A stretch of 46,103 nucleotides of DNA from an uncultured Bacilli bacterium (GCA_947625975.1 CANQQL010000004.1:1-46103); one strand, 5' to 3'; positions 19,835-38,161 are shown, counted from the stretch's first letter. The notes: generated from the sequence alone by a model not told the origin. Numbers and translations are program-made.

Positions 19835-19884
19835 GTATATAAAATAATATCGTAAAAGTAACTCTACAAAACCTTATATTTGAG
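19835..19884 (+). promoter_or_regulatory. CRISPR leader ending in ATTTGAG leader-anchoring sequence
   Basis: AT-rich 50 bp ending ...TATATTTGAG directly before the first repeat, matching the conserved type II-A leader end. Confidence 0.8.
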
Positions 19885-22163
19885 GTTTGAGAGTAGTGTT
19901 ATCTTTTATTACTCTTAAACTAAAATTCCACTTGCTAAAATCAATATTATGTTTGAGAGTAGTGTTATCTTTTATTACTCTTAAACTTATTTATTACTTA
20001 CAAAGAACGAAACAAAGTTTGAGAGTAGTGTTATCTTTTATTACTCTTAAACTTTGTATACTTTTTATTACCCTTTAACTTTAGTTTGAGAGTAGTGTTA
20101 TCTTTTATTACTCTTAAACCTAGTAGATGAAAACGAATCATCAGAACAAGTTTGAGAGTAGTGTTATCTTTTATTACTCTTAAACTTATGATGTATTAAT
20201 AAAATATAACCCCGCGGTTTGAGAGTAGTGTTATCTTTTATTACTCTTAAACAATGAATATAGATTTAGATTACGCAGATTGGTTTGAGAGTAGTGTTAT
20301 CTTTTATTACTCTTAAACATTTACAAACCATAAATTGTCATTATAAGTGTTTGAGAGTAGTGTTATCTTTTATTACTCTTAAACAATGAATATAGATTTA
20401 GATTACGCAGATTGGTTTGAGAGTAGTGTTATCTTTTATTACTCTTAAACATTATAAACTTTAAAACCCATAAAATTAAGGTTTGAGAGTAGTGTTATCT
20501 TTTATTACTCTTAAACAAAGTAAATACTGCTGTACAAGAGACTGATGTTTGAGAGTAGTGTTATCTTTTATTACTCTTAAACTTCCACATAACTATTTAA
20601 CCTCCTTATTATGTTTGAGAGTAGTGTTATCTTTTATTACTCTTAAACTTAAAATACTTTCAATGTAGTTTCTATCTAGTTTGAGAGTAGTGTTATCTTT
20701 TATTACTCTTAAACTAAGATTTCCATTAAATTACATAGAGACAAGTTTGAGAGTAGTGTTATCTTTTATTACTCTTAAACCGCCGTTGAGAATGCTATTT
20801 TAATGGCAAAGTTTGAGAGTAGTGTTATCTTTTATTACTCTTAAACATAATAAACTTTAAAACCCACAAAACTAATGTTTGAGAGTAGTGTTATCTTTTA
20901 TTACTCTTAAACACCATTTGATGAGAGATAAACTAGAGGGCTTGTTTGAGAGTAGTGTTATCTTTTATTACTCTTAAACATACTTGCGATTGATGAACCT
21001 AACTCACTTGTTTGAGAGTAGTGTTATCTTTTATTACTCTTAAACGGCGCGCGTACATCTTGAGATTGAGGGAATGGTTTGAGAGTAGTGTTATCTTTTA
21101 TTACTCTTAAACGCTGTAAATTGATTTAATGTTCCACTAAAAGTTTGAGAGTAGTGTTATCTTTTATTACTCTTAAACTTTGTTACTACTAATGGTTTAA
21201 CTACAACAGGTTTGAGAGTAGTGTTATCTTTTATTACTCTTAAACTGTATCAACTTTTTCATTTATTGATGTTTCTGTTTGAGAGTAGTGTTATCTTTTA
21301 TTACTCTTAAACCCGAAATTATGGCGTTTTGGCGCGAAACATGTTTGAGAGTAGTGTTATCTTTTATTACTCTTAAACTTTTCTTCGTTATAATAATTAA
21401 CATCGTAAGTTTGAGAGTAGTGTTATCTTTTATTACTCTTAAACATTCTTACAAGATTTTAACAATGGTATTTGGTTTGAGAGTAGTGTTATCTTTTATT
21501 ACTCTTAAACCTAAAATTTCTATAAAACTGCGTTTTCTATGTTTGAGAGTAGTGTTATCTTTTATTACTCTTAAACCTGATAATTTAGAAGAACATATTG
21601 GAACGAGTTTGAGAGTAGTGTTATCTTTTATTACTCTTAAACATTACCACCACTTTTTGACAAATAGCCCACGTTTGAGAGTAGTGTTATCTTTTATTAC
21701 TCTTAAACTAAGTTTCAGGCTCTAATTCCTGCAATTCGCTGTTTGAGAGTAGTGTTATCTTTTATTACTCTTAAACTTTAATTTAACTGGCGGATTGTTG
21801 CCAAATGTTTGAGAGTAGTGTTATCTTTTATTACTCTTAAACTTTTAACATTGTCTGGATTTGCTAACCAAGGTTTGAGAGTAGTGTTATCTTTTATTAC
21901 TCTTAAACATATTGGGCTAATTTAATTAAAGTTTCTAAAGTTTGAGAGTAGTGTTATCTTTTATTACTCTTAAACTCAAAATAGCGATTTATTTAGAGCG
22001 GTTAAGTTTGAGAGTAGTGTTATCTTTTATTACTCTTAAACATGCTTTGAATTAAATCTCCACCTACGACTGTTTGAGAGTAGTGTTATCTTTTATTACT
22101 CTTAAACCAAGTAAAGATATTAAAATTCTTTGGGATTGTTTGAGAGTAGTGTTATCTTTTATT
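19885..22163 (+). CRISPR. CRISPR array: 34 full 36-bp repeats GTTTGAGAGTAGTGTTATCTTTTATTACTCTTAAAC, one truncated terminal repeat, 34 spacers of 30-32 bp
   Basis: Repeats counted by eye from 19885 to 22107; terminal repeat 22138-22163 diverges after 26 nt. Confidence 0.98.
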
Positions 22164-22605: not shown

Positions 22606-23130
22606 ATGAAAATTTGGAAAATCATTAAATTTTTTGTGTATATAATCTCCGCTATTATGATAGCGATTTTTAATCTTGAAATAGTGGAAAATTTGAAGTA
22701 TTTAATTGGCTTTTTAATGATAATTTATGGCTTAGAACCTGTAATTATACATTTTGCAACTAGAAAAAAGTTTACTGAGCATACAAAATTTTATTGGGGA
22801 GCAATTGAAATTTTATTGGGATTTGTAGTTTTGTTTTTAGTTTCGGACTATGCAACTATTTGTGTTATCTGGGGAATTTGGTCCATTTTAAGAGAAACAC
22901 ATGAAATTGAAGAGTGCGTTCATATGTTTATACATAAAAATCCAGTTGCTGTTATTAGTCTTGTAGAATCTATAGTAGTAATAGTTTTTTCAATTACATT
23001 AATTCTTGAGCCAGGAGAGCACCATGCTTTAATACATGTTTATCTACTATGTGCTGAATTGTTAACAACAGTAACCTTGCCATTACTTGAAGATTTGTAT
23101 TTAAAACAAAAAGAGAAAAATAAAAAATAA
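22606..23130 (+). CDS. membrane protein, DUF308/HdeD-like
   Basis: Start moved to ATG 22606 (RBS GAGGTG upstream); repeated TM hairpins, WGIWSILRE. Confidence 0.65.
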   Translation: MKIWKIIKFFVYIISAIMIAIFNLEIVENLKYLIGFLMIIYGLEPVIIHFATRKKFTEHTKFYWGAIEILLGFVVLFLVSDYATICVIWGIWSILRETHEIEECVHMFIHKNPVAVISLVESIVVIVFSITLILEPGEHHALIHVYLLCAELLTTVTLPLLEDLYLKQKEKNKK

Positions 23131-23156
23131 GGTAGTGCATAGCGCATTGCCTTTTT
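23129..23156 (+). terminator. intrinsic terminator
   Basis: AAGGTAGTGC-ATA-GCGCATTGCCTT stem with G-U pairs followed by a T tract. Confidence 0.6.
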
Positions 23157-23216
23157 AAAAATTATACTTTATTTTATTTATTCTAATGAATAAAATAGTA
23201 ACAAGGAGTTTGAATT

Positions 23217-24428
23217 ATGGATAAAGAAATATTTGATCTCATTGAGAAAGAAACTATTAGACAAAATGATGGAATAGAACTTATTGCTTCAGAGAATTAT
23301 ACAAGTAAAGAGGTTAGAAAAGCCTGTGGCTCTATTTTAACAAATAAATATGCTGAAGGTTATCCGGGAAGAAGATATTACGGCGGTTGTTTATATGTGG
23401 ATAAAGTTGAACAAATTGCAATTGATAGAGCTTGTCAATTGTTTCATGCTAAATTTGCCAATGTTCAACCACATAGTGGTTCTCAGGCTAATGCTGCAGC
23501 TTATCGTGCCTTGCTTCCAGAAGGTGGAAAAATCTTAAGTTTGGTTTTAAATGACGGAGGCCATTTAACACATGGATCTCCTGTCAGTTTTTCATCTCAT
23601 CTTTATAACTTTGTATACTATCCTTTAGACAAAAATGGGAAATTAGATTATGAAAGTATTTTACAAATTGCTGAAAAAGAAAGGCCGGATCTTATTTTAG
23701 CAGGATATAGTGCCTATCCATATAGTATTGATTTTGAAAAAATTAAAGAAATTGCCGATAAAGTTAAAGCAAAATTTATTGTTGATATGGCTCATATTGC
23801 TGGTTTAGTTGCAGCAGGTATTCATCAAAATCCGATAGAGTATGCAGATGTTGTAACTACAACGACACACAAAACATTAAGAGGCCCAAGAGGTGGATTG
23901 ATACTTACTAATGATGAAGGTTTAAGCAAGAAAATTAATAGTGCGGTTTTCCCGTACTATCAAGGAGGACCATTAGAGCATATTATTGCCGGTAAAGCAA
24001 TTTGTTTTAAAGAAGCCTTAAGTGAGGAATTTAAAGAATATGCAAAAAGAATTGTAGAAAATACTAAAGCCTGTCAATCAAAATTAAGGAGTTTAGGGGC
24101 GCTTACAAGTGGAACGGATAATCATTTATTTTTGCTTAATACATTAGATAGTTATCATTTAACTGGTTTAGAGGCACAGATTATCTTGGAAAAAGTTGGC
24201 ATAACCACAAACAAAAATATGATACCGAACGATACTCTGACTCCAAAAGAAACAAGTGGATTAAGAATTGGCTTTGCAGCAAGTACTACAAGAGGTTGCA
24301 CTTTAAAAGATGCTCAAGATATTGCCTTAATCATTCATAAAGTTTTAAGTAAAACTATTGATGATGAACAAGCGAAAATCGAAGTTAGACGCATAACTTC
24401 CACATGGCGAAAAATTGAAGACATCTAG
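23217..24428 (+). CDS. glyA: serine hydroxymethyltransferase
   Basis: LIASEN, KYAEGYPGRRYYGG, NVQPHSGSQAN, TTTTHKTLRGPRGG. Confidence 0.98.
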   Translation: MDKEIFDLIEKETIRQNDGIELIASENYTSKEVRKACGSILTNKYAEGYPGRRYYGGCLYVDKVEQIAIDRACQLFHAKFANVQPHSGSQANAAAYRALLPEGGKILSLVLNDGGHLTHGSPVSFSSHLYNFVYYPLDKNGKLDYESILQIAEKERPDLILAGYSAYPYSIDFEKIKEIADKVKAKFIVDMAHIAGLVAAGIHQNPIEYADVVTTTTHKTLRGPRGGLILTNDEGLSKKINSAVFPYYQGGPLEHIIAGKAICFKEALSEEFKEYAKRIVENTKACQSKLRSLGALTSGTDNHLFLLNTLDSYHLTGLEAQIILEKVGITTNKNMIPNDTLTPKETSGLRIGFAASTTRGCTLKDAQDIALIIHKVLSKTIDDEQAKIEVRRITSTWRKIEDI

Positions 24429-24449
24429 CATAGTTTGGCTATGCTTTTT
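24427..24449 (+). terminator. glyA terminator
   Basis: AGCATAG-TTTGG-CTATGCT-TTTT. Confidence 0.7.
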
Positions 24450-24477
24450 ATTTTCATTTTCAAAATAATTTACTTGA

Positions 24478-24562
24478 AAAAAATTACTAAATATTTTATT
24501 TGTTTTTTAGTAATTTTTTGTTGACTATTTATATATAAATAATTAAACTATTAACTAGTTAA
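24478..24562 (+). promoter_or_regulatory. marR-operon promoter with operator candidates
   Basis: TTGACT (24521), 17 bp spacer, TAAACT (24544); perfect palindrome TTAACTAGTTAA (24551-24562) over the expected start site; 14-bp inverted repeat 24478-24491/24506-24519 just upstream. Confidence 0.6.
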
Positions 24563-24593
24563 CATTTTGAGTTAATTAGAAAAAGGTGACTTT

Positions 24594-25079
24594 ATGGAAG
24601 AAATAAAAAAACAAATTATTTTTCGTTTAAAATTAATTGACTTATATCGAAGATTTTCTTTGCAAAAATCTGATACAGGAGTATTTCGCGGTCAATTCCC
24701 TATATTAAAATATTTAACGATGAATGATGGATGTAGTCAAATAACGCTTTCAAAAGAATTTAATATTTCGGCTGCGGCAATTACTAAAACCATTAATCGT
24801 TTAGCAAAAGAAAAACTAATTATTAAGAAAGCGGATAAAGCAAATAAGCGAGCAAACCTTATTTTTATCACTGAAAAAGGGAAAAACGCTTTAGAAAAAG
24901 CCGAAGTGTATTTCAAAATGCTTGATGATAAATCGTTTGCAAATTTTAAAGATGAGGAAATCATTGAACTTAAAAGATTACTTGATAAAGTCCTAATGAA
25001 TCTCTATGAAACAAATGATGCGAATGAAGAAAACATTTGTATTAAAATGAAAAATTTATTTAAGATGGAGGCAAAATAA
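24594..25079 (+). CDS. MarR family transcriptional regulator
   Basis: GQFPILKYL...SQITLS..ISAAAITKTINRL..DKANKRANLIFITEKG. Confidence 0.92.
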   Translation: MEEIKKQIIFRLKLIDLYRRFSLQKSDTGVFRGQFPILKYLTMNDGCSQITLSKEFNISAAAITKTINRLAKEKLIIKKADKANKRANLIFITEKGKNALEKAEVYFKMLDDKSFANFKDEEIIELKRLLDKVLMNLYETNDANEENICIKMKNLFKMEAK

Positions 25080-26875
25080 TGATTAAGAAAATAAAACTTA
25101 TTCTAGCAAGCGTACGCGAATATAAAAAGTACGCAATATTGACACCGATTTTTATGATTGGTGAAGCTGCAATGGAATGTACCATACCATTTGTTATGTC
25201 ATTATTTCTTGATGAAATAGAGAGAATGGGTTTTGGCATTAATTTTGTTGCTTTGCTTCCTTATATTATTAGTCTAGTCCTTATGGCAATGCTCTCGTTA
25301 GCTTGTGGAATTCTTGGTGGAAGAACTGCTGCTATTGCATCAACGGGACTTGCGAAGAATTTGCGTTCCGATATGTATAAAAAACTTCAGTCATTTTCAT
25401 TTGAAAATATTGATAAATTCTCCAATTCATCTTTAGTTACGCGTATGACAACAGATATAAACAACACCCAGATGTCATTCCAAATGTGTATAAGAATTGT
25501 TGTGCGGGCACCTTTAATGCTCTTGTTTTCAATAATTATGGCTTTTATCAGTGGAGGTAATATGGCTTTTATCTTTGTTGGTATTATTCCATTTGTGGTC
25601 TTTGGCTTTCTTTTAATTATGCGCCTTGCAATGCCTATATTTAAAAGAGTATTTAAGCGCTATGATGCTTTAAATGAATCAGTACAAGAAAATATTTCCG
25701 GTATTCGGGTTGTTAAATCATATGTTCGGGAGGATTATGAGCAGAACAAATTTAATAATGCCAGCAATAGCATTACAAAAGAATTTATTAAAGCTGAAAA
25801 GATTTTGGCCTTTAATAATCCAATTATGAATTTTGCCATTCATACCTCTAATATTTTAGTCTGTTCAATCGGAGCTTGGGTCATTGTGAATTCTGCAAGT
25901 TATACGATTGATAAAGAGGGACAAAAAGTAATTGCATGGGGTAATTTAACGCTACCAAAATTGTCATCTCTATTAACTTATGGCGTACAAGTACTTATGT
26001 CTTTAATGATGATTTCGATGATAATTGTTATGTTAACAATGTCCGTCGAAGCAGTTCGTCGTATTGCCGAAGTTTTAGAAGAAGAGCCCACAATTACTAA
26101 TCCACAAAATCCTCTTTACGAAGTAAAGGATGGATCAGTTATATTTAAAAATGTGAATTTTAAATATAAAGATACTTCCGAAAAATATACTTTAGAAAAC
26201 ATTAATTTTGAAATAAAAAGCGGACAATTTGTGGGAATTATTGGTTCGACAGGCTCAGGTAAAACATCTCTAATAAATCTTATTTCTCGTTTATATGATA
26301 CTAAAGAAGGAGAAATTCTTGTTGGTGGAAAGAATGTTAAAGATTATGATTTAGACACCTTAAGAAATAATGTTGCCGTTGTATTACAAAAGAATGTTTT
26401 ATTTTCGGGAACAATAGAAGAAAATTTGCGTTGGGGCGATTTAAATGCATCTATGGAAGAAATTATAAGAGTTAGTAAAATAGCTCAGGCTGATGAATTT
26501 GTTTCTGGTTTTCCTGATGGTTATAGCACATATATTGAGCAAGGTGGTACTAATGTATCCGGAGGACAAAAACAAAGGCTTTGCATTGCAAGAGCACTAC
26601 TAAAAAAACCAAAGATTTTAATACTTGATGATTCAACTTCTGCAGTTGATACTAAAACAGATAAGCTTATTAATTTAGGGTTAAAATCACAAATGCCGGA
26701 TACAACAAAAATTGTTATTGCACAAAGAATTTCCTCGATAGAAGAAGCTGATCTCATCATTGTGATGGAAAATGGTCATATCGACCAAATTGGAACGCAT
26801 GAAGAACTTTTAAAAACTAATAAAATTTATCAAGAGGTTTATAACACGCAAACAAAGAATGGAGGTAAGGAATAA
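25079..26875 (+). CDS. heterodimeric ABC exporter subunit (TMD-NBD, degenerate Walker B)
   Basis: GSTGSGKT, VSGGQKQR, ILILDDSTS (D for catalytic E), IAQR. Confidence 0.93.
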   Translation: MIKKIKLILASVREYKKYAILTPIFMIGEAAMECTIPFVMSLFLDEIERMGFGINFVALLPYIISLVLMAMLSLACGILGGRTAAIASTGLAKNLRSDMYKKLQSFSFENIDKFSNSSLVTRMTTDINNTQMSFQMCIRIVVRAPLMLLFSIIMAFISGGNMAFIFVGIIPFVVFGFLLIMRLAMPIFKRVFKRYDALNESVQENISGIRVVKSYVREDYEQNKFNNASNSITKEFIKAEKILAFNNPIMNFAIHTSNILVCSIGAWVIVNSASYTIDKEGQKVIAWGNLTLPKLSSLLTYGVQVLMSLMMISMIIVMLTMSVEAVRRIAEVLEEEPTITNPQNPLYEVKDGSVIFKNVNFKYKDTSEKYTLENINFEIKSGQFVGIIGSTGSGKTSLINLISRLYDTKEGEILVGGKNVKDYDLDTLRNNVAVVLQKNVLFSGTIEENLRWGDLNASMEEIIRVSKIAQADEFVSGFPDGYSTYIEQGGTNVSGGQKQRLCIARALLKKPKILILDDSTSAVDTKTDKLINLGLKSQMPDTTKIVIAQRISSIEEADLIIVMENGHIDQIGTHEELLKTNKIYQEVYNTQTKNGGKE

Positions 26876-28824
26876 TGCCACCAGTACGTTTACCAAAAAA
26901 TGCCAATCACTCAAAGGCAAAAAAAGGAACTTTGTTCAGACTTATCAAAATGCTTTTTAAGAATTATAAATGGCAAATAATTCTCGCACTTATTTGTATT
27001 ATTTTAGTATCAATAAGTAATTTTACATCATCAATATTTGTTAAAAATATTACTAATACAGTCAACGCAATTGTCGAAGATAAAGTTCTAAATAATAAGG
27101 AACCAAATTTTGCACCATTAATTCAATTGCTTATAATTATGGGTTCGATTTATTTTGTAGGAATGATTGCATCTTTTACATTTAATTACACCCTAGGAAT
27201 TACGACACAAAAATTCTTAAATACTATACGAAAAGAAATGTTTGGTCATATGGAGACTTTACCTATTAAATATTTTGATACTCATGCACACGGCGATATT
27301 ATGTCTATATATACAAATGATACAGATACTATTCGTCAATTAGTAAGTCAATCGTTGCCAAGTTTATTTCAAACTTTCTTTACACTTATAGCGTTACTAT
27401 CTATAATGCTTTATTATTCAATCTGGCTAAGTCTTGTAGTTTTATTCGGCTCGTTGTTTATGATTTTTTGCACTAAAACAATTGGAGGGAAATCTGCGAA
27501 ATTTTTTGTTAAGCAACAAAAAGCTTTAGGTGTAGTAGAAGGTACAATTGAAGAATCAATCAACGGACTAAAAGTTATTAAAGTTTTCTGCCATGAAGAT
27601 AAATCGATTCAAGATTTTGATAAACTAAATAACCACTTATGTGAAGTGGCTACTGTAGGTAATATAAATGGTAATATTGTCGGACCAATTATCGGTAATA
27701 TTGGTAATATTCTCTATGTCTTAATAGCGGTTATTGGCGGATTATTTATAATGTTTCCTAATAATCTTCATAACATAAACATTTTTGGTCAAATTACGCC
27801 TAAAAGAGAATTAATTGGCATTATTTTGTCTTTCTTAATGATGGCTAGAATGTTTTCTAATAATATCAATACTTTATCTCAACAAGTAACTTTTATTGTT
27901 ATGGGTATGGCCGGAGCTTCACGTATTTTTGAATTATTAGATGAGCAAAGTGAAGTTGACGATGGCTATGTTACTTTAGTAAATATTAAATACAAAGAAG
28001 ATGGATCTTTCGAGGAAAGTAATGAACGAACAAGATATTTTGCTTGGAAACACCCGCATAAAGAAAGTGGTACTATTACTTATACTGAATTAAAAGGCGA
28101 TATTGTTTTAGATAAAGTGGACTTCGGTTATGTACCGGAAAAAATTGTTTTAACGGATGTTTCGATTTATGCTCGCCCCGGACAAAAAATTGCTTTGGTG
28201 GGGGCAACAGGTGCAGGTAAAACAACCATCACAAATTTGATTAATAGATTTTACGATATAGCCGATGGTAAGATAAGATACGATGGCATTAATATTAATA
28301 AAATTAGAAAAAGTGATTTAAGAAGATCTTTAGGTATCGTCTTACAAGATACAAATTTATTCTCGGGAACTGTTATGGATAATATCCGTTACGGAAGATT
28401 AGATGCTACAGATGAAGAAGTCTTTGAGGCTGCTAAGATTGCTAATGCCTATGACTTTATTACGCGCTTACCGCAGGGCTTTAATACTATGTTAAGTGGT
28501 GATGGTGCAAACTTGTCGCAAGGACAAAGACAATTACTCTCTATTGCACGTGCTGCAGTTGCTGATGCTCCGGTTATGATATTAGACGAAGCAACTTCAA
28601 GTATTGATACTCGAACAGAAAAATTAGTGCAAAAAGGTACAGATAGATTGATGAAGGGACGCACAGTATTCGTCATTGCTCATCGTTTGTCAACTGTTAT
28701 GAATTCTGATGCAATTATGGTACTTGAGCATGGTAAAATTATTGAACGTGGCAGTCATGATGATTTAATTAAACAAAAGGGTAAATATTATCAGTTATAT
28801 ACCGGAGCGTTTGAATTAGAATAA
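26875..28824 (+). CDS. heterodimeric ABC exporter subunit (TMD-NBD, consensus Walker B)
   Basis: GATGAGKT, LSQGQRQ, ILDEATSSID, IAHRLST. Confidence 0.93.
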   Translation: MPPVRLPKNANHSKAKKGTLFRLIKMLFKNYKWQIILALICIILVSISNFTSSIFVKNITNTVNAIVEDKVLNNKEPNFAPLIQLLIIMGSIYFVGMIASFTFNYTLGITTQKFLNTIRKEMFGHMETLPIKYFDTHAHGDIMSIYTNDTDTIRQLVSQSLPSLFQTFFTLIALLSIMLYYSIWLSLVVLFGSLFMIFCTKTIGGKSAKFFVKQQKALGVVEGTIEESINGLKVIKVFCHEDKSIQDFDKLNNHLCEVATVGNINGNIVGPIIGNIGNILYVLIAVIGGLFIMFPNNLHNINIFGQITPKRELIGIILSFLMMARMFSNNINTLSQQVTFIVMGMAGASRIFELLDEQSEVDDGYVTLVNIKYKEDGSFEESNERTRYFAWKHPHKESGTITYTELKGDIVLDKVDFGYVPEKIVLTDVSIYARPGQKIALVGATGAGKTTITNLINRFYDIADGKIRYDGININKIRKSDLRRSLGIVLQDTNLFSGTVMDNIRYGRLDATDEEVFEAAKIANAYDFITRLPQGFNTMLSGDGANLSQGQRQLLSIARAAVADAPVMILDEATSSIDTRTEKLVQKGTDRLMKGRTVFVIAHRLSTVMNSDAIMVLEHGKIIERGSHDDLIKQKGKYYQLYTGAFELE

Positions 28825-28965
28825 TGTAGTCTTAAAAACCATTTGAGAGCAATCTTACCACATGGATGCGCAACAAAGACATCTTATGTTATATTTGGGC
28901 TTTTGGAGTTGCCTCTCACTAAGTACTATAATTTTAAAAAAATAATATATTTTAAAACGCTTCTA

Positions 28966-28997
28966 AGGAAGTTTTACAAATTTGAACTTCCTTTTTT
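28966..28997 (+). terminator. probable intrinsic terminator
   Basis: AAGGAAGTT...AACTTCCTT followed by TTTT. Confidence 0.55.
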
Positions 28998-29621
28998 ATT
29001 TTGATAAAATTTAACGCATCGATAATAATATACGTACTTTACAAAAGGTCCAAACTCAACGCGGGAAGGATAATTTTTACGTTTTAACATAGTTAATATC
29101 TTCTTGAATATTAGCTAAAAGGAGAACATTTTACTATACAAAAGAAATTTAGAGCGACAATAATTAGAGGTATTTTTAAATACTTGCAGATCTTACAAAA
29201 AATACCGATTAGAATTCTTTGGAAATATTTGGTGACAAGTAAAAACTTTAACTATATTGTTTCAATTTTTAGGCATATAAAATTTTACAATTTTATAAAT
29301 GTTTAGGACAAAAAAATAGGTTTAAGCCTATTTCTGAAGATTAACCATATAGTCGATTTGTTCTTTAAAAAAGTATCAAAGTGGTATTTATCAAATACGA
29401 AGGTAGTACATTCTTTGTTGTTTAATAAAATTTTAGATTTAATAAAAAATTGTTCTGAAATAAGTATTGCTATAAAAGAACTTTACAAAAAGAAAACTTT
29501 AAAACTCAATTATGCGATAAACAGGCTTTAGAATTTAAGCTTACTGCTTTGAATGAAGAATATGCATTCAAAAGTAATTGAAATCAACATCCTTTATAAA
29601 TTTGCAAAAGTTTAAACTCGT

Positions 29622-29717
29622 TTGAAAAAGTTTTATATTTTGTAAAAAGTCGCTTGAAAAAGTTTAATAATTTACATAAACTTCATTAAAAAAGTTTTAA
29701 ATATGCGAAATAATATT
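29622..29717 (+). repeat. degenerate ~32-bp direct repeats upstream of the AAA ATPase gene
   Basis: TTGAAAAAGTTTTA (29622), TTGAAAAAGTTTAA (29654), TTAAAAAAGTTTTA (29686); related copies at 29602 and 29641. Confidence 0.5.
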
Positions 29718-29743
29718 TATGAAAAAGATAAAGGTGACAAATT

Positions 29744-29937
29744 ATGTTAAAAAGAAAAATTGAAAAAGTGTTAAAAGAATGGAAAAACATGCCTAATAAA
29801 AGTTCTCTTATCATAAAAGGGCAAAGACAGTGTGGAAAAACTTTTTCTGTTCTAAAGTTTGCAAAAGAAAATTACAAACACGTAGTTTATTTGAATTTTT
29901 GGAAAATCCCAACTATAGTGCCATTTTTAATGGTTCC
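29744..29937 (+). pseudogene. 5' fragment of an AAA family ATPase (AAA_14/DUF4143-type), frameshifted and truncated
   Basis: MLKRKI...LIIKGQRQCGKT...VVYLNF; one more T in the T5 run (29896-29900) gives LENPNYSAIFNGS, then similarity ends at a GC-richer segment. Confidence 0.8.
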
Positions 29938-30300
29938 CATAGGTTAGTCATGAGAAATGCGTTTTGGCGGGGTATTTTGCAAAAGCTTTGTTTTTTTTGT
30001 AAAAATCCCTCCACTTATAATTCAATCGGACGGGCAATCGTCAACAGCCCTCCATAAGTTAGCCACGGGAAAGGAGGTTTGACAGGGTATTTCACCAAAA
30101 AATATCATGCAAAAAGAAAATGCCACGGAAGCAAGCGGACTGCCCGCCACCGCTTCGTGTGGCTTTGATTGATTTCTTTTTTCGGTTTTGTAGGTTTGGT
30201 GATCAAGCACCGCCAAAGTTTCATTTTGGAAAATCTTGGCTATTCGTCTTTAATATTTAGGACCCAATATAAAACTGCAGAATTAAAATTCCCGCTGTTC
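29938..30300. other. GC-richer, hairpin-rich foreign segment (mobile-element end or ncRNA)
   Basis: Abrupt composition shift; stems GTCAA..CCTCC/GGAGG..TTGAC, GCCACG-GAAGC/GCTTC-G-TGTGGC, closing TCAATCGGA/TTTGATTGA. Confidence 0.45.
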
Positions 30301-30319
30301 TAATATATGTGTTAATTAA

Positions 30320-31435
30320 TTATTCTCTTTCTCTAATGGATTTTATATATTCTTCTAACTCTTTTGTCATAAAAATAAAGTTCTTCACAAATTGAGCAAG
30401 TTTCTGGGAGACAATATTTGATATACGTGAATAATCACTCTCATGAAAAGTATAGTCACTGCAATTTCTTCCTTGTAAATCAAAGGCGATTTCTTCTTTC
30501 TCCTGTTTTAACATCAAAATTTGTTCAGTTCGGTGTGTTTCGTCCGCAAGCTCAAGTTCATAATAACAATTAGGACGAGATAATGTTAAGTCAACGATAC
30601 AAACAAGTGCACGATTGATTGAATCCTTTATACTATCCATTATCTTCGGATTATTTTTGTCGTCTTGTCGTTCGGCGATAAATCCTTGCAACCTTGCGCC
30701 TTTTATTATCGCCTTTTTTACCTCGTTAAAGTGTACCCATTCCCGACCAGCAGTCATAGGCATTATAATAAATGCAGTCAATTCTGAAAATCTGCTATTG
30801 TCCTTTTCGCATCGACTTTTTATGTTTTTCATGCATCTGTGATATTCTTCATAACCTATGTCATTCAAAATCACATAATCATATAGGTTTTCACCTATTG
30901 TCCCAATATATGAATTCAAACACTCGGCATTTCTTTGTAGCCTCTTTGATATATTTTCTTCAATCCTACTTATATCTGTAATGTTCCTTTCACGACATTG
31001 AGCCGTAACGCGCTCTCTTAATCGTACGCTATCGCTATAAATAAAAATGCTTACCACCTTTATATTGAGGTAGGATGCATATACCTCTTTAATAGTTCTT
31101 ATTGTTTCGGCATTGCGCACAATTAGATAAACATTGTTGTATTCATAAAGTTTGGAATCTATGTCCTTTTTTAAAACCATGTATCGACAACTTGCTTCAT
31201 TTTCGGGATAATTGTACTCAAAATAGTCGTAATCTTTTCTTCCTCTTTGGTGTGCGTCATATACATCTTTAGTACAATACTCTAAATCGGGACGTTCAAT
31301 CCCATCAAAATCTCTGGGTTTCGTAGTATATTTTTTTATATAAGTATCTCTTTGAGATGCTTCGTCACAAAAATGTTGTATGAAATCGGTTTTTCCCGAA
31401 CCAGCTGCGCCATCAACTAAAAATAAAGTTGGCAT
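30320..31435 (-). CDS. guanylate kinase-like P-loop domain fused to a nucleoside 2-deoxyribosyltransferase-like (NDT/N-glycosidase) domain
   Basis: N-terminal GAAGSGKT, KYTTKPR, YDYVILND; C-terminal AFIIMPM...ERQDD...INRALVCIVDLT..RPNCYYEL..A...FDLQG; RBS AGGAG. Confidence 0.8.
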   Translation of the reverse strand: MPTLFLVDGAAGSGKTDFIQHFCDEASQRDTYIKKYTTKPRDFDGIERPDLEYCTKDVYDAHQRGRKDYDYFEYNYPENEASCRYMVLKKDIDSKLYEYNNVYLIVRNAETIRTIKEVYASYLNIKVVSIFIYSDSVRLRERVTAQCRERNITDISRIEENISKRLQRNAECLNSYIGTIGENLYDYVILNDIGYEEYHRCMKNIKSRCEKDNSRFSELTAFIIMPMTAGREWVHFNEVKKAIIKGARLQGFIAERQDDKNNPKIMDSIKDSINRALVCIVDLTLSRPNCYYELELADETHRTEQILMLKQEKEEIAFDLQGRNCSDYTFHESDYSRISNIVSQKLAQFVKNFIFMTKELEEYIKSIRERE

Positions 31436-31764
31436 AGATGTTTCTCCTAATTGTATTTATTTAAATATACCATTCTTTATTAAAAAAGTAAATTTTAATT
31501 TTACCCTGAATTATCATTTGTTAATCTCAATTGAAAAAGCAACACATGATGAGAACAGGTGTTGCGATATGAATTGTAATGAATAAAATGTTAAAATCAA
31601 ATAAGGTGTTTCAAGAGGTAGAAAGAAGTGAAACAACTGAATCAAAGTGAACCGAATAAAATTTCTTTAATTGCTAAAAAATTAACATTTTATTTGAGAA
31701 ATTAACATTAGAATTGAACATATGTGAATTATAATTTGATTGAGATTTGGAGGATGATATATAA

Positions 31765-32397
31765 ATGAAGTTTAATGAAAAGTTAAAAGCATTAAGAAAA
31801 AAGCATGATTTAACGCAAGTTGAACTTGCAGATCGACTTTATGTCAGTCGTTCACTGGTTGCAAGATGGGAATATGGAGATGTTTATCCCACCATTGATA
31901 ATCTTAATAAAATATCATCTTATTTTGATATTCCGATAGGTGATCTATTATGTGATGATGAAAAAACAGAAATATTAGTTCGCCAAGTAAACTTAGAAAG
32001 CAAAATAAAGAAAGTATTGAGAATATCATTGTTAACATTGATTATAGTTTATTCAATTGTTATGCCAATACTATATTGCTTAAAGATATTTTCTATTATT
32101 GGATATGGTTATTCAGGAGACAATTATACAGGTAGTGATGTAGATTTTAATATTTTTCATTATTCTGTTTTAGATTGTATTTTGCCAGAAGATTCATGGC
32201 TATTAGTTGTCTCACCATTGTTAAATTTCATATTAGCAATTTTTACTATTTTAGATTTTGTTTTTAAAAGAAAAAGATTAAAAAACATTTTGGGAGGAAT
32301 TACTGGTATTCTGTTTGTTATCTCATTGATTTTTGTGATTTTGACATTTGTGCTTGGAACAAAGCATCCGATTGGAATACTTCCCAAATTCATGTAA
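31765..32397 (+). CDS. XRE family HTH regulator with C-terminal transmembrane domain
   Basis: LRKKHDLTQVELADRLYVSRSLVARWEYG..YPT plus 3 TM helices; RBS GGAGG; direct repeat AAATTAACATT at 31679 and 31699 upstream. Confidence 0.88.
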   Translation: MKFNEKLKALRKKHDLTQVELADRLYVSRSLVARWEYGDVYPTIDNLNKISSYFDIPIGDLLCDDEKTEILVRQVNLESKIKKVLRISLLTLIIVYSIVMPILYCLKIFSIIGYGYSGDNYTGSDVDFNIFHYSVLDCILPEDSWLLVVSPLLNFILAIFTILDFVFKRKRLKNILGGITGILFVISLIFVILTFVLGTKHPIGILPKFM

Positions 32398-32495
32398 GTA
32401 GCAAAAAAAGAGATATACTTGAATTAATATTAACTGAATTTGCTTAGTTAATATGAAAGATAAGTTATTAAAATAAAAAATAAGGAGAAAATGTA

Positions 32496-32723
32496 GTGAA
32501 ATTCAAATTTGGCGATATCGTTTATCATGTTCCGTTTGCAAAAGCATATCCAAGCGGAATAGATTATTTGCAAATTCTTGGATATGATTCGGTTAAGCAA
32601 ATGATTTATATTATGAAAACAATGATTTCGATGATTACAACAAAAATTAATCCGAAAAGCAATAAGACATCGAAAAAAAAGATAGCGATAATAAATGATA
32701 ATTATTACATTTGTAGAAAATAA
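32496..32723 (+). pseudogene. short ORF or gene remnant of unknown family
   Basis: Good RBS (AAGGAG) before GTG; N-terminus looks protein-like, the rest looks frameshifted. Confidence 0.3.
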
Positions 32724-33340
32724 AATATGAAAAAGGTATAAATATTATGGAAATTTCTATATTATTATGTGGAATCTTTATATGATTAATTGAAAGAATA
32801 TTAGGGCAACCACTATGCTTATTTAATGTCCAATAAGATTAGTTGTCGGAGTACTAATGTTTACCTAATATATGCTTCTGATAAACTATTTTTAATATTT
32901 TGTGGTAATAAAAAATCAAGCACTTTTGATAGGCGATAATTCGCTTATTGAAGGTTTTTTTAGTTAATTAGAAAATTGTATTTTAAGGAAAAAATTAAAA
33001 AAAGGATTAAAGGATGAGTTCTGAGTAGTAAAATTCTGCTTTTTATGTTCGGGAAAGGTAAGTTTATTGAGTAAATTGCTTTTTTGCTGTTTAGAAAGCA
33101 AAATATTCAGAGTGGGTTGTCGTTTCGGTTATAACAAAATATTGAATTACAAAATTTAGTAGCGACATTTTATAGATATAATTTGAGACAAAACGAGTGC
33201 GAATATTATAAGCAAGTCAAAATATTAAAATTTTCAAAAATACAATTTATTTTGAAGCCTGAATTGTGAGAAAACATAAATTTATTATAAAACTTAAATA
33301 CATTTTGAGTCCTAGACAAAGTTATTTCTCTTTTATTCAT

Positions 33341-33400
33341 AAAAAAGGATGTTGTTTCACCCAAATTTTTAATTGGGTTTTTCAACATCCTCTTTTTTTT
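33341..33400 (-). terminator. terminator downstream of the 988-aa gene (possibly bidirectional)
   Basis: AGGATGTTG...CAACATCCT with inner ACCCAA/TTGGGT stem, flanked by A and T tracts. Confidence 0.6.
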
Positions 33401-33404
33401 GCTT

Positions 33405-36371
33405 TTAACGAGTGTGAGTGGTGCTTAACCACTCATTTAATGCATCACTCTCATGAGCAAGAATGAAATCTTCTAAGTCAGTAATTCTATTTGAATCATC
33501 GGCAACCAAATTACGATCTGCAATATTTAAATTTAAATCAACATTAATGGTAAGACCTACAGAAATACCTAAATGTGCATCTAAGCCGACCAATTGCTCA
33601 TTACTATTATCGGTTTTAACTTTTAAGGTAAGCGCAGTTAAACGATCGTTATTTGCTAATGCAGCTATATCAATATCGAAGAAGAAGTAGTGATCAGTAG
33701 CGTTATAGATGAAATCCTTTAAGATTTTCTCATAGTGTATTTGTGCGCCTTTGTCACTAGTTGCCGAATTTTCAATCATATTCATAATTGAATCTTTAGC
33801 TCCAACAACATCTTTTAAAAGAATTTGTAGAATATTTGCGCTCATGTAATCTAAATCAAAGCGACGAGTATAATTTGTTTGGTAATATACTTTTTTGGTA
33901 AAGAAGAGACCACTTCTCTCATAATAATTATCAATACGATTTAGATAGAACATCTTATTATGATAATAAATGCTAGCAGTTCTACTTTCGTCTACATGAG
34001 TGAAATTTAAACTTGATTCAGAGTTAAGCAATCCATTTAATGGAATATTTACAAAATTAATAGCAAGTTTAATGTCACCATTCTTGGAATGAAGTTTGAT
34101 GTCAAGTGGAATTTCAAAGTCTATGAGAGAGATTGAACCGATATTTAATTTAGCTGTAGCATTAAAGTGATAATAATTAAACTTTGAAGTGTTAATGCCA
34201 AGTAGTAGTAATACTTTTATATCTGAAAAGTCTATGTATTCAACATAAGGATCTAATCTTGTTATGTCTTTTGCTTCATCGTAATTATCTAAACGAATGT
34301 TAAATTCGACATTTTCAGCACCAATTTTACAATTTGATACTTTCAAAGATTTTATAACAGGATTATAAACGACTGTATCTTGTATTTCGGTTTCTCCGGC
34401 AGTGTATTCTAATCTAAGTGTAAATCCATATTCAGAAAAACTAATAATATCTAATGCGAGATCCATTTCGACGTAATAAGTACCATCTTTTTGACCTGTT
34501 TCAAATCGATTAATAATATTAGTGGATAGAAGTTGCGTATAGTCGCCATCCATTACTTGTTTAATCGGCATCGAGTTTATTTTTTCAATAATTTCGCCAA
34601 ATAGTTCGTTAAAATGTTCATCAGGGTTTTTAATGATATCAGTAACTACTCCAACTAATTCTTTAAGAGTACGAATTTTGGCTTTGCCATTCATTGTATC
34701 GTTATATGTAAATAAAATTTCTTCCGATGATTTCATATCAGCTTTTATATTATGCTTATATTCATTGCGATCTGTAACGTTGAGATAACCATAACCATAA
34801 CTATCATCAGTCTCAACATTGGCATCAGGATTTAATTCAAATTGAATATTACCATCCATATTTACTGGTTTAACTAATTCATCATCGTTTTTAACCTGAC
34901 CATCAAAATCAATTTGAAATTTTTTCTCTGGCCAAGAGGCATAATTTTCGTAAACATCAACCAAGCCAAGAAGCGGATCAACTTCAGCATAATCTTGTTC
35001 CACAATGGTAAATGGTTTATATTCGCTAAAAGTTAATACTAAATCAGCAAAATAATTTTTTATAGCTAAGTTTGTCACAGTCATAGATTTTAAACCATTA
35101 GTATCAAATTGTAGAACTATTTTAAATGCACCAATGCTTTCCAAACCGGCTTTACTTGGATCAAGAGTAAAATCTAAAGATTCATCTTTTAATTCAATAT
35201 TTCCTAACATTTTATCTGCGTTATTGAGTATTTCAAGAATATTCGAAGATTTGATTTTTTCCGTTAAAGTATTAATAGTCTCTTCAATTTTACTTTCTCC
35301 GATTTTACTTAATGCATAATCGAGTAAGGTACTGACGGAATCCATTTTTAGCGATACTTTCAAATCCGAATATTTTGCATATATTTTCTTTTCGGATAAA
35401 GCAAAGTTAAATGGTGATTGCTTTTGGTTTGCAGTTAAATTTCCGTCTAAAGAATATTTACTATTGTCAAAGTCGTAAGATAAATCTAAATTTAATCCGA
35501 TAAGATCTTTTCGCTCTTTTTTTACTAAATCTTCTTCCGTTGAAATATCTTTCTTTAAATCTAAATCTACTTTTACAGTATTTTGCTTTTTCTTTGTTAA
35601 GTTATAGAAACCATCGAAGATTGTAAAAGCTGGAGAAAAATTTTGATATTTTGCTAATTCTAGTGTTCTAAAACTTACAGATTCTTGTTGACTTAAATTA
35701 ACATCAAGATGATAGAAATTGCCATTATAGATAAATCTATCCGTTCGAATTCCTTTAAAATTGTTATTTGGGTCAGTTTTAATGTATAAATCAATATTAT
35801 TTAATTGTAATTTAAAACATAAGTCACCAGATGGAGTCACTTTTTTATCTTCCATATTTTGAATAGTGTCCAGTAAAGAATTTGTGTCGAGATTTTTTAA
35901 CTCTTCGGGCATTTCTACCTCCATACCATAAATGGTAGGTAATGCTTCAACAAATTCGAAAACAGAATTTGTATCAATTCTAAAGTGCGAATCGCGATAT
36001 GAAAAATAGGCAGTTGAGTTTTGATAAGATAAATCAAGAGGAATTTTATTTCCATCAATATCGGCGATACCTGTTCCATCTAATTTAAAGTCCTCTAAAT
36101 TAGAAATATCTCCCACACCATCAAAAGTAAGACCAAAATTATATTTTCCATCCATTGTTATATCAAGTTTAGCATCAATATCAAATGCTTTAACATTCAT
36201 GATATTGTTAAAAAGCTTTTGTTGATTTGTAACTAGGGGTGTAAGTCTATTATTATTTCCCTCATCACTTATTTCTGGATCAGTATTTTTTTTGTATTGA
36301 GAAATAAACCCAATGCCAAAACTAAGTCCAAATAGCGATAAAAATATTGCACCTTTTTTAAATTTTTTCAT
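33405..36371 (-). CDS. large membrane-anchored/secreted beta-rich protein with four internal repeats
   Basis: N-terminal MKKFKKG plus hydrophobic segment; four similar modules; RBS GGAGG. Confidence 0.8.
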   Translation of the reverse strand: MKKFKKGAIFLSLFGLSFGIGFISQYKKNTDPEISDEGNNNRLTPLVTNQQKLFNNIMNVKAFDIDAKLDITMDGKYNFGLTFDGVGDISNLEDFKLDGTGIADIDGNKIPLDLSYQNSTAYFSYRDSHFRIDTNSVFEFVEALPTIYGMEVEMPEELKNLDTNSLLDTIQNMEDKKVTPSGDLCFKLQLNNIDLYIKTDPNNNFKGIRTDRFIYNGNFYHLDVNLSQQESVSFRTLELAKYQNFSPAFTIFDGFYNLTKKKQNTVKVDLDLKKDISTEEDLVKKERKDLIGLNLDLSYDFDNSKYSLDGNLTANQKQSPFNFALSEKKIYAKYSDLKVSLKMDSVSTLLDYALSKIGESKIEETINTLTEKIKSSNILEILNNADKMLGNIELKDESLDFTLDPSKAGLESIGAFKIVLQFDTNGLKSMTVTNLAIKNYFADLVLTFSEYKPFTIVEQDYAEVDPLLGLVDVYENYASWPEKKFQIDFDGQVKNDDELVKPVNMDGNIQFELNPDANVETDDSYGYGYLNVTDRNEYKHNIKADMKSSEEILFTYNDTMNGKAKIRTLKELVGVVTDIIKNPDEHFNELFGEIIEKINSMPIKQVMDGDYTQLLSTNIINRFETGQKDGTYYVEMDLALDIISFSEYGFTLRLEYTAGETEIQDTVVYNPVIKSLKVSNCKIGAENVEFNIRLDNYDEAKDITRLDPYVEYIDFSDIKVLLLLGINTSKFNYYHFNATAKLNIGSISLIDFEIPLDIKLHSKNGDIKLAINFVNIPLNGLLNSESSLNFTHVDESRTASIYYHNKMFYLNRIDNYYERSGLFFTKKVYYQTNYTRRFDLDYMSANILQILLKDVVGAKDSIMNMIENSATSDKGAQIHYEKILKDFIYNATDHYFFFDIDIAALANNDRLTALTLKVKTDNSNEQLVGLDAHLGISVGLTINVDLNLNIADRNLVADDSNRITDLEDFILAHESDALNEWLSTTHTR

Positions 36372-36373
36372 AA

Positions 36374-37291
36374 TTAATTTTCCTCCGTTTTTGTATAATT
36401 TATATCCTCATTTAAACTAGGTATGGAAATGTTAGAATTGTAAGTGTATTCTTCTACAATTGTTCCCTTAGTGTCTACTGCTAAAAAGCCATAGGGAACA
36501 TTGTATTCTTCATAAATTTCATTTTTCAGAATAAAAAGGTCACTTGACAGTGTTAACTTTAGATTCACTAAATTAAATGTAGGAAAAGCAGATAATTCAG
36601 AAGTCATCTTCATTTGCTTAGCATAATTTGTTGTGGCCAAATCCGGTTCAAGAGATAAATTTACAATAAATTTGTTGTCTTCGACTTTACTACTTTCTTC
36701 TTTGATCGTAAGTCTGTTTAATGTATAGATAAAAGGCCTTTTCATACTTTTACCCCAAGATTCTTTGAATGACACTTCGCTAAATGTATCTGTCGCATTA
36801 TCTGCCCATTTTGCCGTAGATGATGTTTTTAGTCCTTCGCTTTTATAAACTTTGATTTCATTATCAGTTTGATAAAATCTCCAACCGATTTTCATCAATC
36901 CATAAGACAAACTTTCCGAAAAATAAGAATTATTTTCTTTAATATACTTTGAATAAACTTCTTGATTAGCAACAGAAGCATTAACTACTCCCGTATTAGT
37001 AATTTGTGCATAAGATGATTTTTCAAAGTTAAGAAGTCCAAGTCTTACTAATTGATAAGGGCGAAATTCATTAGTATAGCGATTTAACTCAACTTTCATA
37101 GTTTTTAAATTTGTAAACTTTTCGTAGAGCTCATTATCTTTTTCATCTACTTCAATATTAATAGTTGGAAGTGCGCGATTATGGCTAAAAAAGTTTCGTC
37201 CTGCTAAGAGGCCAATCGTTGTACCACTGCCAACTATTGCAATAGTTGCGATAATGGATAAGATAGGTTTTTTCTTTGATTTCGTTTCCAT
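36374..37291 (-). CDS. membrane-anchored hypothetical protein (beta-rich)
   Basis: Start moved to ATG 37291 (METKSKKK plus TM helix); ends 2 bp before the 988-aa gene. Confidence 0.75.
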   Translation of the reverse strand: METKSKKKPILSIIATIAIVGSGTTIGLLAGRNFFSHNRALPTINIEVDEKDNELYEKFTNLKTMKVELNRYTNEFRPYQLVRLGLLNFEKSSYAQITNTGVVNASVANQEVYSKYIKENNSYFSESLSYGLMKIGWRFYQTDNEIKVYKSEGLKTSSTAKWADNATDTFSEVSFKESWGKSMKRPFIYTLNRLTIKEESSKVEDNKFIVNLSLEPDLATTNYAKQMKMTSELSAFPTFNLVNLKLTLSSDLFILKNEIYEEYNVPYGFLAVDTKGTIVEEYTYNSNISIPSLNEDINYTKTEEN

Positions 37292-37527
37292 ACAACATAA
37301 TTTTATTTTTAGCAATTGGTAAAACAACCTCTTAAATTAAGAAATGTTAAGAGAGTTAATTCTCTATTAAAGATAGTCGAATTCTTTTCTCTCTTTTTAA
37401 GAGAATACAAGCAAAATAATTACAATTTGATGATAAAAATTGATTTTCAACTCCTTTATGCTATAATAAAAAAGTAAAAATTAATCATTTATTTCAATTT
37501 TTATTTTTAGAGGTTTTATAAAGTTTT

Positions 37528-38121
37528 ATGGAAAACATTCGAGAAATTATTGGTGAAAATTTGGCTGAATTAAGGAAAAAAAAGGGCTTAACTCAATTTG
37601 AATTAGCGGAAAAATTTAATTACTCAGATAAAGCAATCAGCAAATGGGAAAATGGATCAACTTTACCAGATATCGAAATTTTATATCAGCTTTGTGAATT
37701 TTATGATGTTAGTCTTGATTACTTGACCCATAAGGAAGATAAGCAAAAATATATTAAAGATACGAATAAAACTTTATTAAAAAATCGTATAGCAATCAGT
37801 TGTTTGCTTGTTTCCATTGTCTGGATGATTGCTACTATTATTTTTGTGTATACATTAATGGACAATCCTACATCTCCAAACTGGGTAGCCTTTGTTTGGG
37901 CTGTTCCAATATCGTGCATTATATTAATTGGGTTGAATAAAATTTTTTTCCGCAATAGAGCAATGTATTTTTATGTTTGTTCAATTCTTGTTTGGTCTGG
38001 TATTACTTCCTTTTTTTGTCAGTTTATCAGTTACACACCATGGCCAATTTTTATTGTAGGATTACCTATGCAAATATCTTTAATACTTTGGTACTGCATA
38101 ATATTTACAAAAAGAAAATAA
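37528..38121 (+). CDS. XRE family HTH regulator with C-terminal transmembrane domain
   Basis: LRKKKGLTQFELAEKFNYSDKAISKWENG..LPDI plus 4 TM helices. Confidence 0.9.
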   Translation: MENIREIIGENLAELRKKKGLTQFELAEKFNYSDKAISKWENGSTLPDIEILYQLCEFYDVSLDYLTHKEDKQKYIKDTNKTLLKNRIAISCLLVSIVWMIATIIFVYTLMDNPTSPNWVAFVWAVPISCIILIGLNKIFFRNRAMYFYVCSILVWSGITSFFCQFISYTPWPIFIVGLPMQISLILWYCIIFTKRK

Positions 38122-38161
38122 AAAAAGTCCAAACCTTCAAAAAAAGAGGTTTGGGCTTTTT
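38121..38161. terminator. bidirectional terminator between convergent genes
   Basis: AAAAAGTCCAAACCTT...GAGGTTTGGGCTTTTT. Confidence 0.7.

Follow-up and report, generated by a model that had tools for sequence, protein, structure and literature searches.

In a stretch of 46,103 nucleotides from an uncultured Bacilli bacterium (hereafter the window; one whole contig, CANQQL010000004.1, of a genome with a size of 1.27 Mb and a completeness of 89%), a single gene encodes a P-loop domain of the guanylate kinase (GK) fold fused to a domain of the fold that TIR domains have in common with nucleoside deoxyribosyltransferases (NDT). The analysis of this gene, its relatives and their neighborhoods suggests, at a probability that we put at roughly one half, that it is an accessory, horizontally moving effector of conflict or defense; the anti-phage effect, the substrate and the role of the kinase-like domain are predictions. 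This reading is supported by the patchy spread of the family over many phyla, including archaea, and by the fusion of the C-terminal domain, among relatives, to CHAT, EAD and Death-like domains. An earlier note on this DNA, made from the sequence alone, had proposed that the gene is a one-gene anti-phage system.

Two domains in one polypeptide

All the motifs by which the earlier note had recognized the two halves are present in the translation, namely GAAGSGKT (residues 9-16), YTTKPR (36-41) and YDYVILND (185-192) in the N-terminal half, and AFIIMPM (221-227), RQDD (256-259), IVDLTLSRPNCYYEL (280-294) and FDL (318-320) in the C-terminal half. A word-indexed search retrieved 21 relatives of 269-377 amino acids with 33-85% identity; the query and 20 of these make up the family alignment of 21 sequences, from which the 269-residue fragment P0004 was omitted. 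The AlphaFold2 (AF2) model derived from this alignment has a predicted local distance difference test score (pLDDT) of 87.2 and a predicted template modeling score (pTM) of 0.85, and Foldseek searches recovered a guanylate kinase fold in one half and a TIR/NDT-type fold in the other.

In VIA-align, the N-terminal domain of the AF2 model matches guanylate kinase 2qor with a Z score of 16.7 (root-mean-square deviation, rmsd, of 3.3 over 188 aligned residues), and its top Foldseek matches are guanylate kinases, with a target-normalized template modeling score (TMt) of up to 0.75 (8egl). A reading of both folds as those of cytokinin synthesis (IPT-LOG) was considered and rejected, given that isopentenyltransferases reach Z scores of 10.6-11 compared with 16.7 for guanylate kinase. 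Because seven residues (G9, G12, G14, K15, R142, R165 and R168) are invariant in all 21 aligned sequences, the domain appears to retain nucleotide binding and probably phosphotransfer as well. The guanylate kinase identity proposed for this half holds for the fold but probably not for the nucleoside monophosphate (NMP) site, and the window gene scores only 25.2-26.6 bits with the NCBIfam model guanyl_kin (TIGR03263), far under the cut-off of 160.45, whereas PF00625 has no match to the protein at E<=1. The residues T-T-R...D-Y-F of the solved GK, which we take to be those that bind GMP, read T-T-K...D-L-x-Y in a weak profile alignment to 3tr0 (E = 8.3e-5), in which the first Arg is paired with K39 and the Tyr with L51, and the NMP site of the domain appears to be remodeled. 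GMP is an unlikely ligand, since the same genome encodes a true gmk elsewhere (C1:5708-6253, 233 bits). The secondary NCBIfam match of relatives is the ribose-bisphosphate kinase PhnN (6.5e-8 for the L010 protein and 7e-4 for P0010).

The C-terminal domain of the full model is most similar to the TIR domain of SfSTING (7un8; Z score 14.8, rmsd 2.2, 120 aligned residues), followed by MilB (14.4), TIRAP (13.4), NDTs (13.2-13.3) and RCL (12.6). When this domain was modeled on its own (pLDDT 88.1), the Foldseek matches were MilB (3.2e-5), DNPH1 (1.6e-4) and TIR-STING (1.7e-4); because these lie within one order of magnitude, the predicted fold is equally compatible with an NADase and an NMP N-glycosidase. 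Among solved structures, a profile built from 13 C-domains, down to 17% identity, ranks Cap12/SfSTING first (2.3e-5), followed by an NDT with the motif F-E-L-G (6qai, 0.0044) and DNPH1 (0.3). In all three alignments, Glu293 is placed against the Glu of the E-x-G motif, and the alignment with Cap12/SfSTING shares the extended motif L-T-x-x-R-x-N-V-x-x-E-x-G; all 13 C-domains have the same residues at D282, L283, N289 and E293. The NDT assignment of the earlier note is thus borne out with respect to the fold and the catalytic-type Glu, but not with respect to NDT specificity: by sequence, the domain is at least as close to the TIR-like domains of Cap12 and Pycsar, and by fold, the tie with the NMP N-glycosidases MilB and DNPH1 counts against it. 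We denote the domain TIR/NDT-like and assign it to neither family, because the PADLOC 'Effector TIR' model matches other members of the family (up to 6e-14) and the nearest cluster in the ESM Atlas is a mixed one, in which 30% of the members carry PF05014 and 27% carry PF10137. The window protein itself has no match to PF05014 at E<=1 (gathering threshold 28.8 bits) and none to PF10137 (24.7 bits).

The E-x-G motif carries the anomaly that had been pointed out previously, namely YELE (residues 292-295) in place of YELG, with the codon GAG for E295 on the minus strand at 30551-30553, and the comparison with relatives confirms it. All 22 other relatives that were aligned have Gly at position 295, including the rest of the family alignment (20 of 21 sequences, with the window protein as the sole exception) and both members of the 90% cluster of the window protein (95% and 94% identity); the same applies to 12 of the 13 C-domains of the wider family. 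Among the contigs of four public runs, T at the variable base is found only in X1 (word depth 4.5), which is probably the source sample, and the other three runs have the codon for Gly; one of these, X3, comes from a different study and differs from the window at 6 of 923 bases. The G295E change is either recent and private to the sample or an error of low-depth assembly, and the window allele may be weakened or dead.

The ribosome-binding site (RBS) and the extended -10 element claimed for the gene are present, as is a terminator-like hairpin, all three as consensus matches (Table 1). The gene is indeed richer in guanine and cytosine (GC) than its neighbors (0.341, compared to 0.27 for the remainder of the island on which it resides and 0.288 for the window), but it ranks third among 29 open reading frames (ORFs) and so remains within the range of the window.

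Table 1. Features of the gene and its surroundings (positions counted from the first nucleotide of the window)
Feature	Position	Strand	Basis or detail
Strain-specific 4.6-kb island, between an ABC-transporter gene and the gene for a 988-aa protein	28825-33404	.	same-genus comparison
AAA_14-type ATPase, N-terminal fragment, 67 aa	29744-29947	+	Pfam 1.3e-7, profile positions 3-39 of 129
Terminator-like hairpin, 25 nt past the stop codon	30277-30295	-	consensus match only
ORF, GK-fold domain fused to TIR/NDT-like domain	30320-31435	-	371 aa, ATG start; span includes the stop codon
TIR/NDT/DNPH1/MilB-type domain, residues 218-353	30377-30784	-	model fold searches
Y-Y-E-L-E with invariant Glu293, residues 291-295	30551-30565	-	alignments
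Variable base	30552	.	T, GAG (Glu295) here; C, GGG (Gly) in runs X3, X5, X8
GK-fold P-loop domain, residues 1-213	30797-31435	-	model fold search
P-loop, residues 9-16	31388-31411	-	G9, G12, G14, K15 invariant in 21/21
RBS AGGAGA, 7 nt 5' of ATG	31443-31448	-	sequence, consensus match only
Promoter-like site TTTACT-17-TATATT, TG before -10	31464-31492	-	consensus match only
XRE-type HTH protein with hydrophobic C-terminal half, divergent from the gene	31765-32397	+	Pfam HTH_3 3.5e-14

An accessory gene and the neighborhoods of its relatives

In two genomes of the same genus, G006 and G083, the DNA matching positions 23000-28824 and 33436-38133 of the window lies only about 254 and 164 bp apart, respectively, and the alignment diverges directly past the stop codon of the ABC-transporter gene. 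Because the flanks are adjacent in both genomes, the segment between them is an island specific to the genome of the window. Among the genomes of the same family, 3 of 101 (G000 included) contain any match to the gene, which is full-length only in G000 and distant or partial in the other two. Given this distribution, the separate gmk gene and the absence of the island from G006 and G083, the gene is accessory rather than housekeeping.

Besides the fusion gene, the island encompasses the AAA_14 fragment and the gene for the protein with an XRE-type helix-turn-helix (HTH). The previous description of the gene as lying among broken genes is confirmed for one recognizable fragment, that of AAA_14, downstream of which no frame has a match, but not for the remaining small ORFs, which have no match in Pfam. 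No att-like direct or inverted repeats were detected at the island borders, where only short, chance-like AT-rich matches were found. A domain scan of 18 ORFs of the window (17975-45895) detected no reverse transcriptase (RT), cyclase or TIR gene; for RT, this agrees with the earlier statement that none lies nearby. A search of the window with Rfam yielded three tRNAs only, and neither Rfam nor ARAGORN found anything near the gene.

The family is large and scattered. A hidden Markov model (HMM) search of representative proteins with a profile spanning both domains matched 20,135 representatives at E<=0.001, 4,779 at 1e-10 and 57 at 1e-30. The species-genome collection contains 68 loci in many bacterial and archaeal phyla, and the metagenome collection contains 157 relatives, of which 80 were kept. 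Family matches are missing from all 50,697 phage records; the viral contig collection has 2 loci only, and there is one weak partial match among 72,556 plasmid records. A Pfam architecture scan of 70 out of 150 listed relatives found Guanylate_kin in 14, Nuc_deoxyrib_tr (PF05014) in 35 at E<=0.001 and CAP12-PCTIR_TIR (PF10137) in 2, with some relatives, such as P0041 (37.3 bits), above the Pfam threshold for PF05014 and one, P0067 (27.4 bits), above that for PF10137. In 11 of the 70, the NDT-like domain is combined with a REC domain, and several of these contain a CHAT, EAD7/8 or bacterial Death-like domain.

The six closest loci (L002-L007) show no conserved neighbor, nor do close homologs share a metabolic operon. 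ORF calling and clustering around 99 unique kinase-domain proteins identified a recurrent module of genes on the same strand in 23 loci from bacterial and archaeal phyla (L008, L009, L010, L012, L015, L023, L030, L031, L037 and 14 more; for example, L010:9986-13798). This module consists of the GK-fusion (~367 aa), a ~443-aa protein with a central Nudix domain and a ~440-470-aa protein that comprises two GK-like domains; some copies add a second GK-NDT protein. No description of the Nudix/double-kinase module was found in the literature searched. In a quick, midpoint-rooted maximum-likelihood tree of 74 rows, with support values of the Shimodaira-Hasegawa-like approximate likelihood ratio test (SH-aLRT) only, the window protein falls in a clade with a support of 91, all 8 rows of which are solo or have an unknown context, and the sister group of this clade includes two module-linked rows, L027 and L119. 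The earlier claim of a one-gene system accordingly fits the window gene, which is solo and has its own signals on an island, but not the many distant relatives that are linked to the module.

Genes of recognized defense types adjoin several GK-fusion genes, in particular, within copies of the module, one for a TIR-TM protein in L029 (2454-3632, 4.2e-33) and one for a CBASS-type four-transmembrane (4TM) effector in L105 (4790-5668, 6e-32), and, in L077 (2780-3754 and 6047-7120), two for canonical TIR_2 proteins, the latter in a genome of the same genus as the window; in the same-genus genome G006, a distant GK-fusion gene has one TIR_2 gene before it and one after. We scanned the flanks of 11 solo relatives with PADLOC, taking ORFs of at least 80 aa from as many as 6 genes to either side; of these 98 ORFs, 10 (in 7 loci) had a match at 1e-10 or better, a count that falls to 8 (in 5 loci) once generic HTH and cold-shock matches are removed. 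The matches include GajA and GajB directly downstream of the gene in L021, a type II methyltransferase (MTase) and restriction endonuclease (REase) pair in L011, PDC-S15 in L025, and PDC-S35-like and SIR2-like proteins in L059; the flanks of L004, L005, L006 and L024 had no match at this cut-off. For the module, 82 flanking ORFs at 16 loci were scanned, and 13 of them, spread over 8 loci, matched PADLOC models at 1e-15 or better. These comprise, among others, a type III MTase (3.7e-295), Avs4 (1.7e-263), a type II restriction-modification pair, PDC-S31 and the CBASS-type 4TM effector, but two encode TnsB and TniQ, which serve in transposition. Co-localization with defense genes is therefore weak for the six closest loci but clearer for more distant relatives.

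Several other observations concern the surroundings of the gene and its relatives. The HTH gene was considered as a conserved partner and provisionally rejected; the 44%-identical homolog L002 also has an XRE-type HTH gene with a hydrophobic C-terminal half nearby (L002:11923-12606), but the likeness is limited to the HTH (36% over 61 aa). In L012 (3621-9573), the module copy lies directly downstream of TnsB- and TniQ-like genes and may be cargo of a Tn7-like transposon. Directly downstream of the window gene, a GC-rich stretch (~0.37; 30083-30260) has no ORF or RNA-family match and holds a terminator-like hairpin on the plus strand (30146-30163). Between the promoter-like site of the gene and the HTH gene lies an intergenic element of 75-90 nt that includes a short hairpin (31517-31610). 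The genome of the window contains 15 matches to this element, of which at least 5 are located at contig ends, and its word depth in two runs is 47-100x, whereas that of the gene is ~5x; the element may represent a promoter-like repeat or a miniature mobile element. The window also contains a type II-A CRISPR-Cas locus (13914-22163) with a Cas9-sized ORF of 1353 aa, Cas1, a Cas2-sized ORF, Csn2 and an array of ~34 repeats of 36 nt (19885-22163), which ends 6.7 kb from the island; the 148-aa ORF at 21279-21725 lies within the array and is spurious.

A putative nucleotide-centric effector and the alternatives

If the gene is a conflict or defense effector, the C-terminal domain would be an N-glycosidase of the TIR/NDT superfamily, in which Glu293 would cut the bond between base and ribose with the assistance of Asp282 and Asn289. 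The substrate would be either NAD+, as with the TIR-like domains of Cap12 and Pycsar, or a nucleoside 5'-monophosphate, as with DNPH1 and MilB. The GK-fold domain, with its P-loop and lid arginines kept and its NMP pocket changed, would bind ATP together with a nucleotide-like ligand and might either gate the glycosidase as a sensor of nucleotides that appear in infection or phosphorylate its substrate or product. Activation would then drain an essential nucleotide pool and phage growth would stop.

A more specific and tentative version, which we regard as possible but doubtful, combines the two contexts of the family. The gene would be the minimal, one-protein form of a widespread nucleotide-centric immune module made up of the GK-TIR/NDT-like fusion, the Nudix protein and the double kinase, to which a TIR or 4TM protein would sometimes be added, and the GK-fold domain would sense or phosphorylate a nucleotide present only in infection, thereby licensing the glycosidase. 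The ligand might be, for example, the deoxynucleoside monophosphates (dNMPs) that flood the cell when host DNA is degraded or a modified dNMP specific to the phage, and the licensed glycosidase would destroy NAD+ or the sensed nucleotide itself.

A number of findings weigh against a role in defense. In the Pfam scan, the window protein had sub-threshold P-loop matches only, none of which reached a cut-off, and the substitution G295E alters a residue that is conserved across Cap12, NDT and DNPH1, two positions past the catalytic-type Glu. Many relatives have partner genes, the Nudix protein and the double kinase in 23 loci, and a search of the genome of the window (89% complete) did not detect the Nudix partner. 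At 1e-10, no convincing known defense neighbor was found in the six closest loci, where L007 has only a partial pVip-like radical-SAM match and L005 and L004 only weak ones (3e-8 to 9e-8). The counts of defense neighbors, made without a background control, are only suggestive of a defense linkage, and PADLOC models also match homologs that are not involved in defense. Finally, kinase-NDT fusions are found in phages too, where a metabolic role is likely.

Alternatively, the gene could be an orphan of a multi-gene system for nucleotide processing or signaling, composed of the Nudix protein and the double kinase, with a TIR or 4TM protein in some cases; such an orphan would not be autonomous and may be decaying. 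The module-linked rows in the sister group of the window clade, the Nudix neighbor with the double kinase alongside in 23 loci, the partner missing from the genome of the window, the private G295E change and the gene fragment next door are all consistent with this explanation, which we nevertheless consider unlikely. The 8 rows of the window clade are of solo or unknown context, and because this solo clade keeps all key residues across 33-78% identity, the stand-alone form seems to be under purifying selection; moreover, the ORF is otherwise intact and is accompanied by a promoter-like site, an RBS and a terminator-like hairpin of its own, and a near-identical strain keeps Gly295.

Less likely again is an enzyme of nucleotide metabolism or pool sanitation without an immune role, in which a DNPH1/MilB-like (d)NMP N-hydrolase would be joined to an NMP-kinase-like domain. 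Both domains would bind nucleoside monophosphates, the enzymes that head the Foldseek ranking for the isolated C-domain, MilB, DNPH1 and BcmB, are NMP N-glycosidases, and relatives have the secondary match to PhnN. In the same direction point the clusters that combine kinase and NDT domains in phages and bacteria (ESM Atlas scores 0.79-0.81, leads only) and the presence of phage GMP kinases and a hydroxymethyl-CMP hydrolase in BFVD. Such an enzyme is hard to reconcile with the very patchy distribution and the strain-specific island, with the lack of a conserved metabolic operon around close homologs and with the defense genes that neighbor relatives, as well as with the fusion of the C-domain family to conflict-related domains (CHAT, EAD, Death-like) and with the Cap12 TIR domain being the closest solved relative by sequence.

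A selfish toxin that stabilizes the island or another mobile element as an addiction module, with no protection from phages, would be in keeping with the location on an island, the potentially toxic type of the effector domain, the serine recombinase and NikA-like gene adjoining the homolog L002 and the TnsB/TniQ genes at the module locus L012, but is improbable given that there is no conserved antitoxin-like partner, the HTH genes of the window and L002 being alike only over the HTH, and that the family is nearly missing from plasmid, phage and viral records.

Known systems and implications

Considered as a conflict or defense effector, the protein is most readily compared with Cap12 (TIR-STING) and the TIR effectors of Pycsar. 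The C-domain fold is common to them (7un8), the best solved relative by profile is found there, and Cap12, like the window protein, joins a nucleotide-binding domain and a glycosidase domain in a single polypeptide. The TIR domains of Cap12 and Pycsar are NADases. Their sensor, however, is a STING or cyclic nucleoside monophosphate (cNMP)-binding domain, whereas the window protein has the N-terminal GK-fold P-loop domain. In CBASS and Pycsar, a cyclase (CD-NTase or PycC) is encoded beside the effector; none was found among the 18 window ORFs, and the small ORFs of the island are unmatched. The same holds for Thoeris, in which a ThsB-type TIR gene lies beside the effector and which has no counterpart among the window ORFs scanned, although TIR genes flank distant relatives of the window protein in L029 and L077.

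DNPH1/Rcl and MilB/BcmB, the top Foldseek matches of the isolated C-domain, resemble it in the Y/F-E-L-G motif that is aligned with DNPH1, but they lack a kinase domain, being stand-alone enzymes of metabolism or biosynthesis, and the sequence link to DNPH1 is marginal (E = 0.3). Similarly, Gmk and PhnN have the fold, the P-loop and the lid arginines in common with the N-domain, whereas the window gene falls far below the Gmk cut-off and its GMP-site residues appear to be changed. By analogy only, AvcD is similar in that a nucleotide-kinase-like domain is fused to a nucleotide-destroying one in a single gene. AvcD combines a P-loop kinase-like domain with a dCMP/dCTP deaminase, and the C-domain of the window protein does not have a deaminase fold.

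Retron effectors (Ec86/Eco1 and RcaT of Sen2) have an effector domain of the NDT superfamily in common with the window protein, and the Ec86 preprint indicates that the NDT-like domain depletes adenine nucleotides in defense. A retron includes an RT gene and an msr/msd RNA, neither of which was detected in the window by the domain scan and Rfam, and the partner of the effector domain is here a kinase fold; with no RT or msr/msd RNA present, control by multicopy single-stranded DNA (msDNA) does not apply.

The earlier note did not recognize the fusion as a named system. No full-length model of PADLOC 2.0.0 matches the window protein, which has only a partial match to the CBASS 'Effector TIR' model PDLC00733 (1.6e-6, residues 253-324), and the literature searched names no system with this fusion. 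SLOG-guanylate kinase fusions in phages are mentioned in PMC9503650. A 2015 survey of nucleotide-centric conflict systems in Nucleic Acids Research may describe the architecture. Within PADLOC 2.0.0 and the literature searched, the kinase-fold partner of this probable TIR/NDT-like effector is unreported.

Glycosidases of the TIR and NDT types recur as the lethal effectors of immune systems in bacteria, and each known case has a switch of its own, be it STING, a cNMP-binding domain, the msDNA of a retron or a STAND sensor. A switch of the GK fold, if true, would be a new coupling of nucleotide sensing or phosphorylation to the destruction of NAD+ or nucleotides. The natural G295E variant offers a ready-made probe of the E-x-G motif, and the Nudix/multi-kinase module of the relatives hints at an unexplored nucleotide pathway in defense islands.

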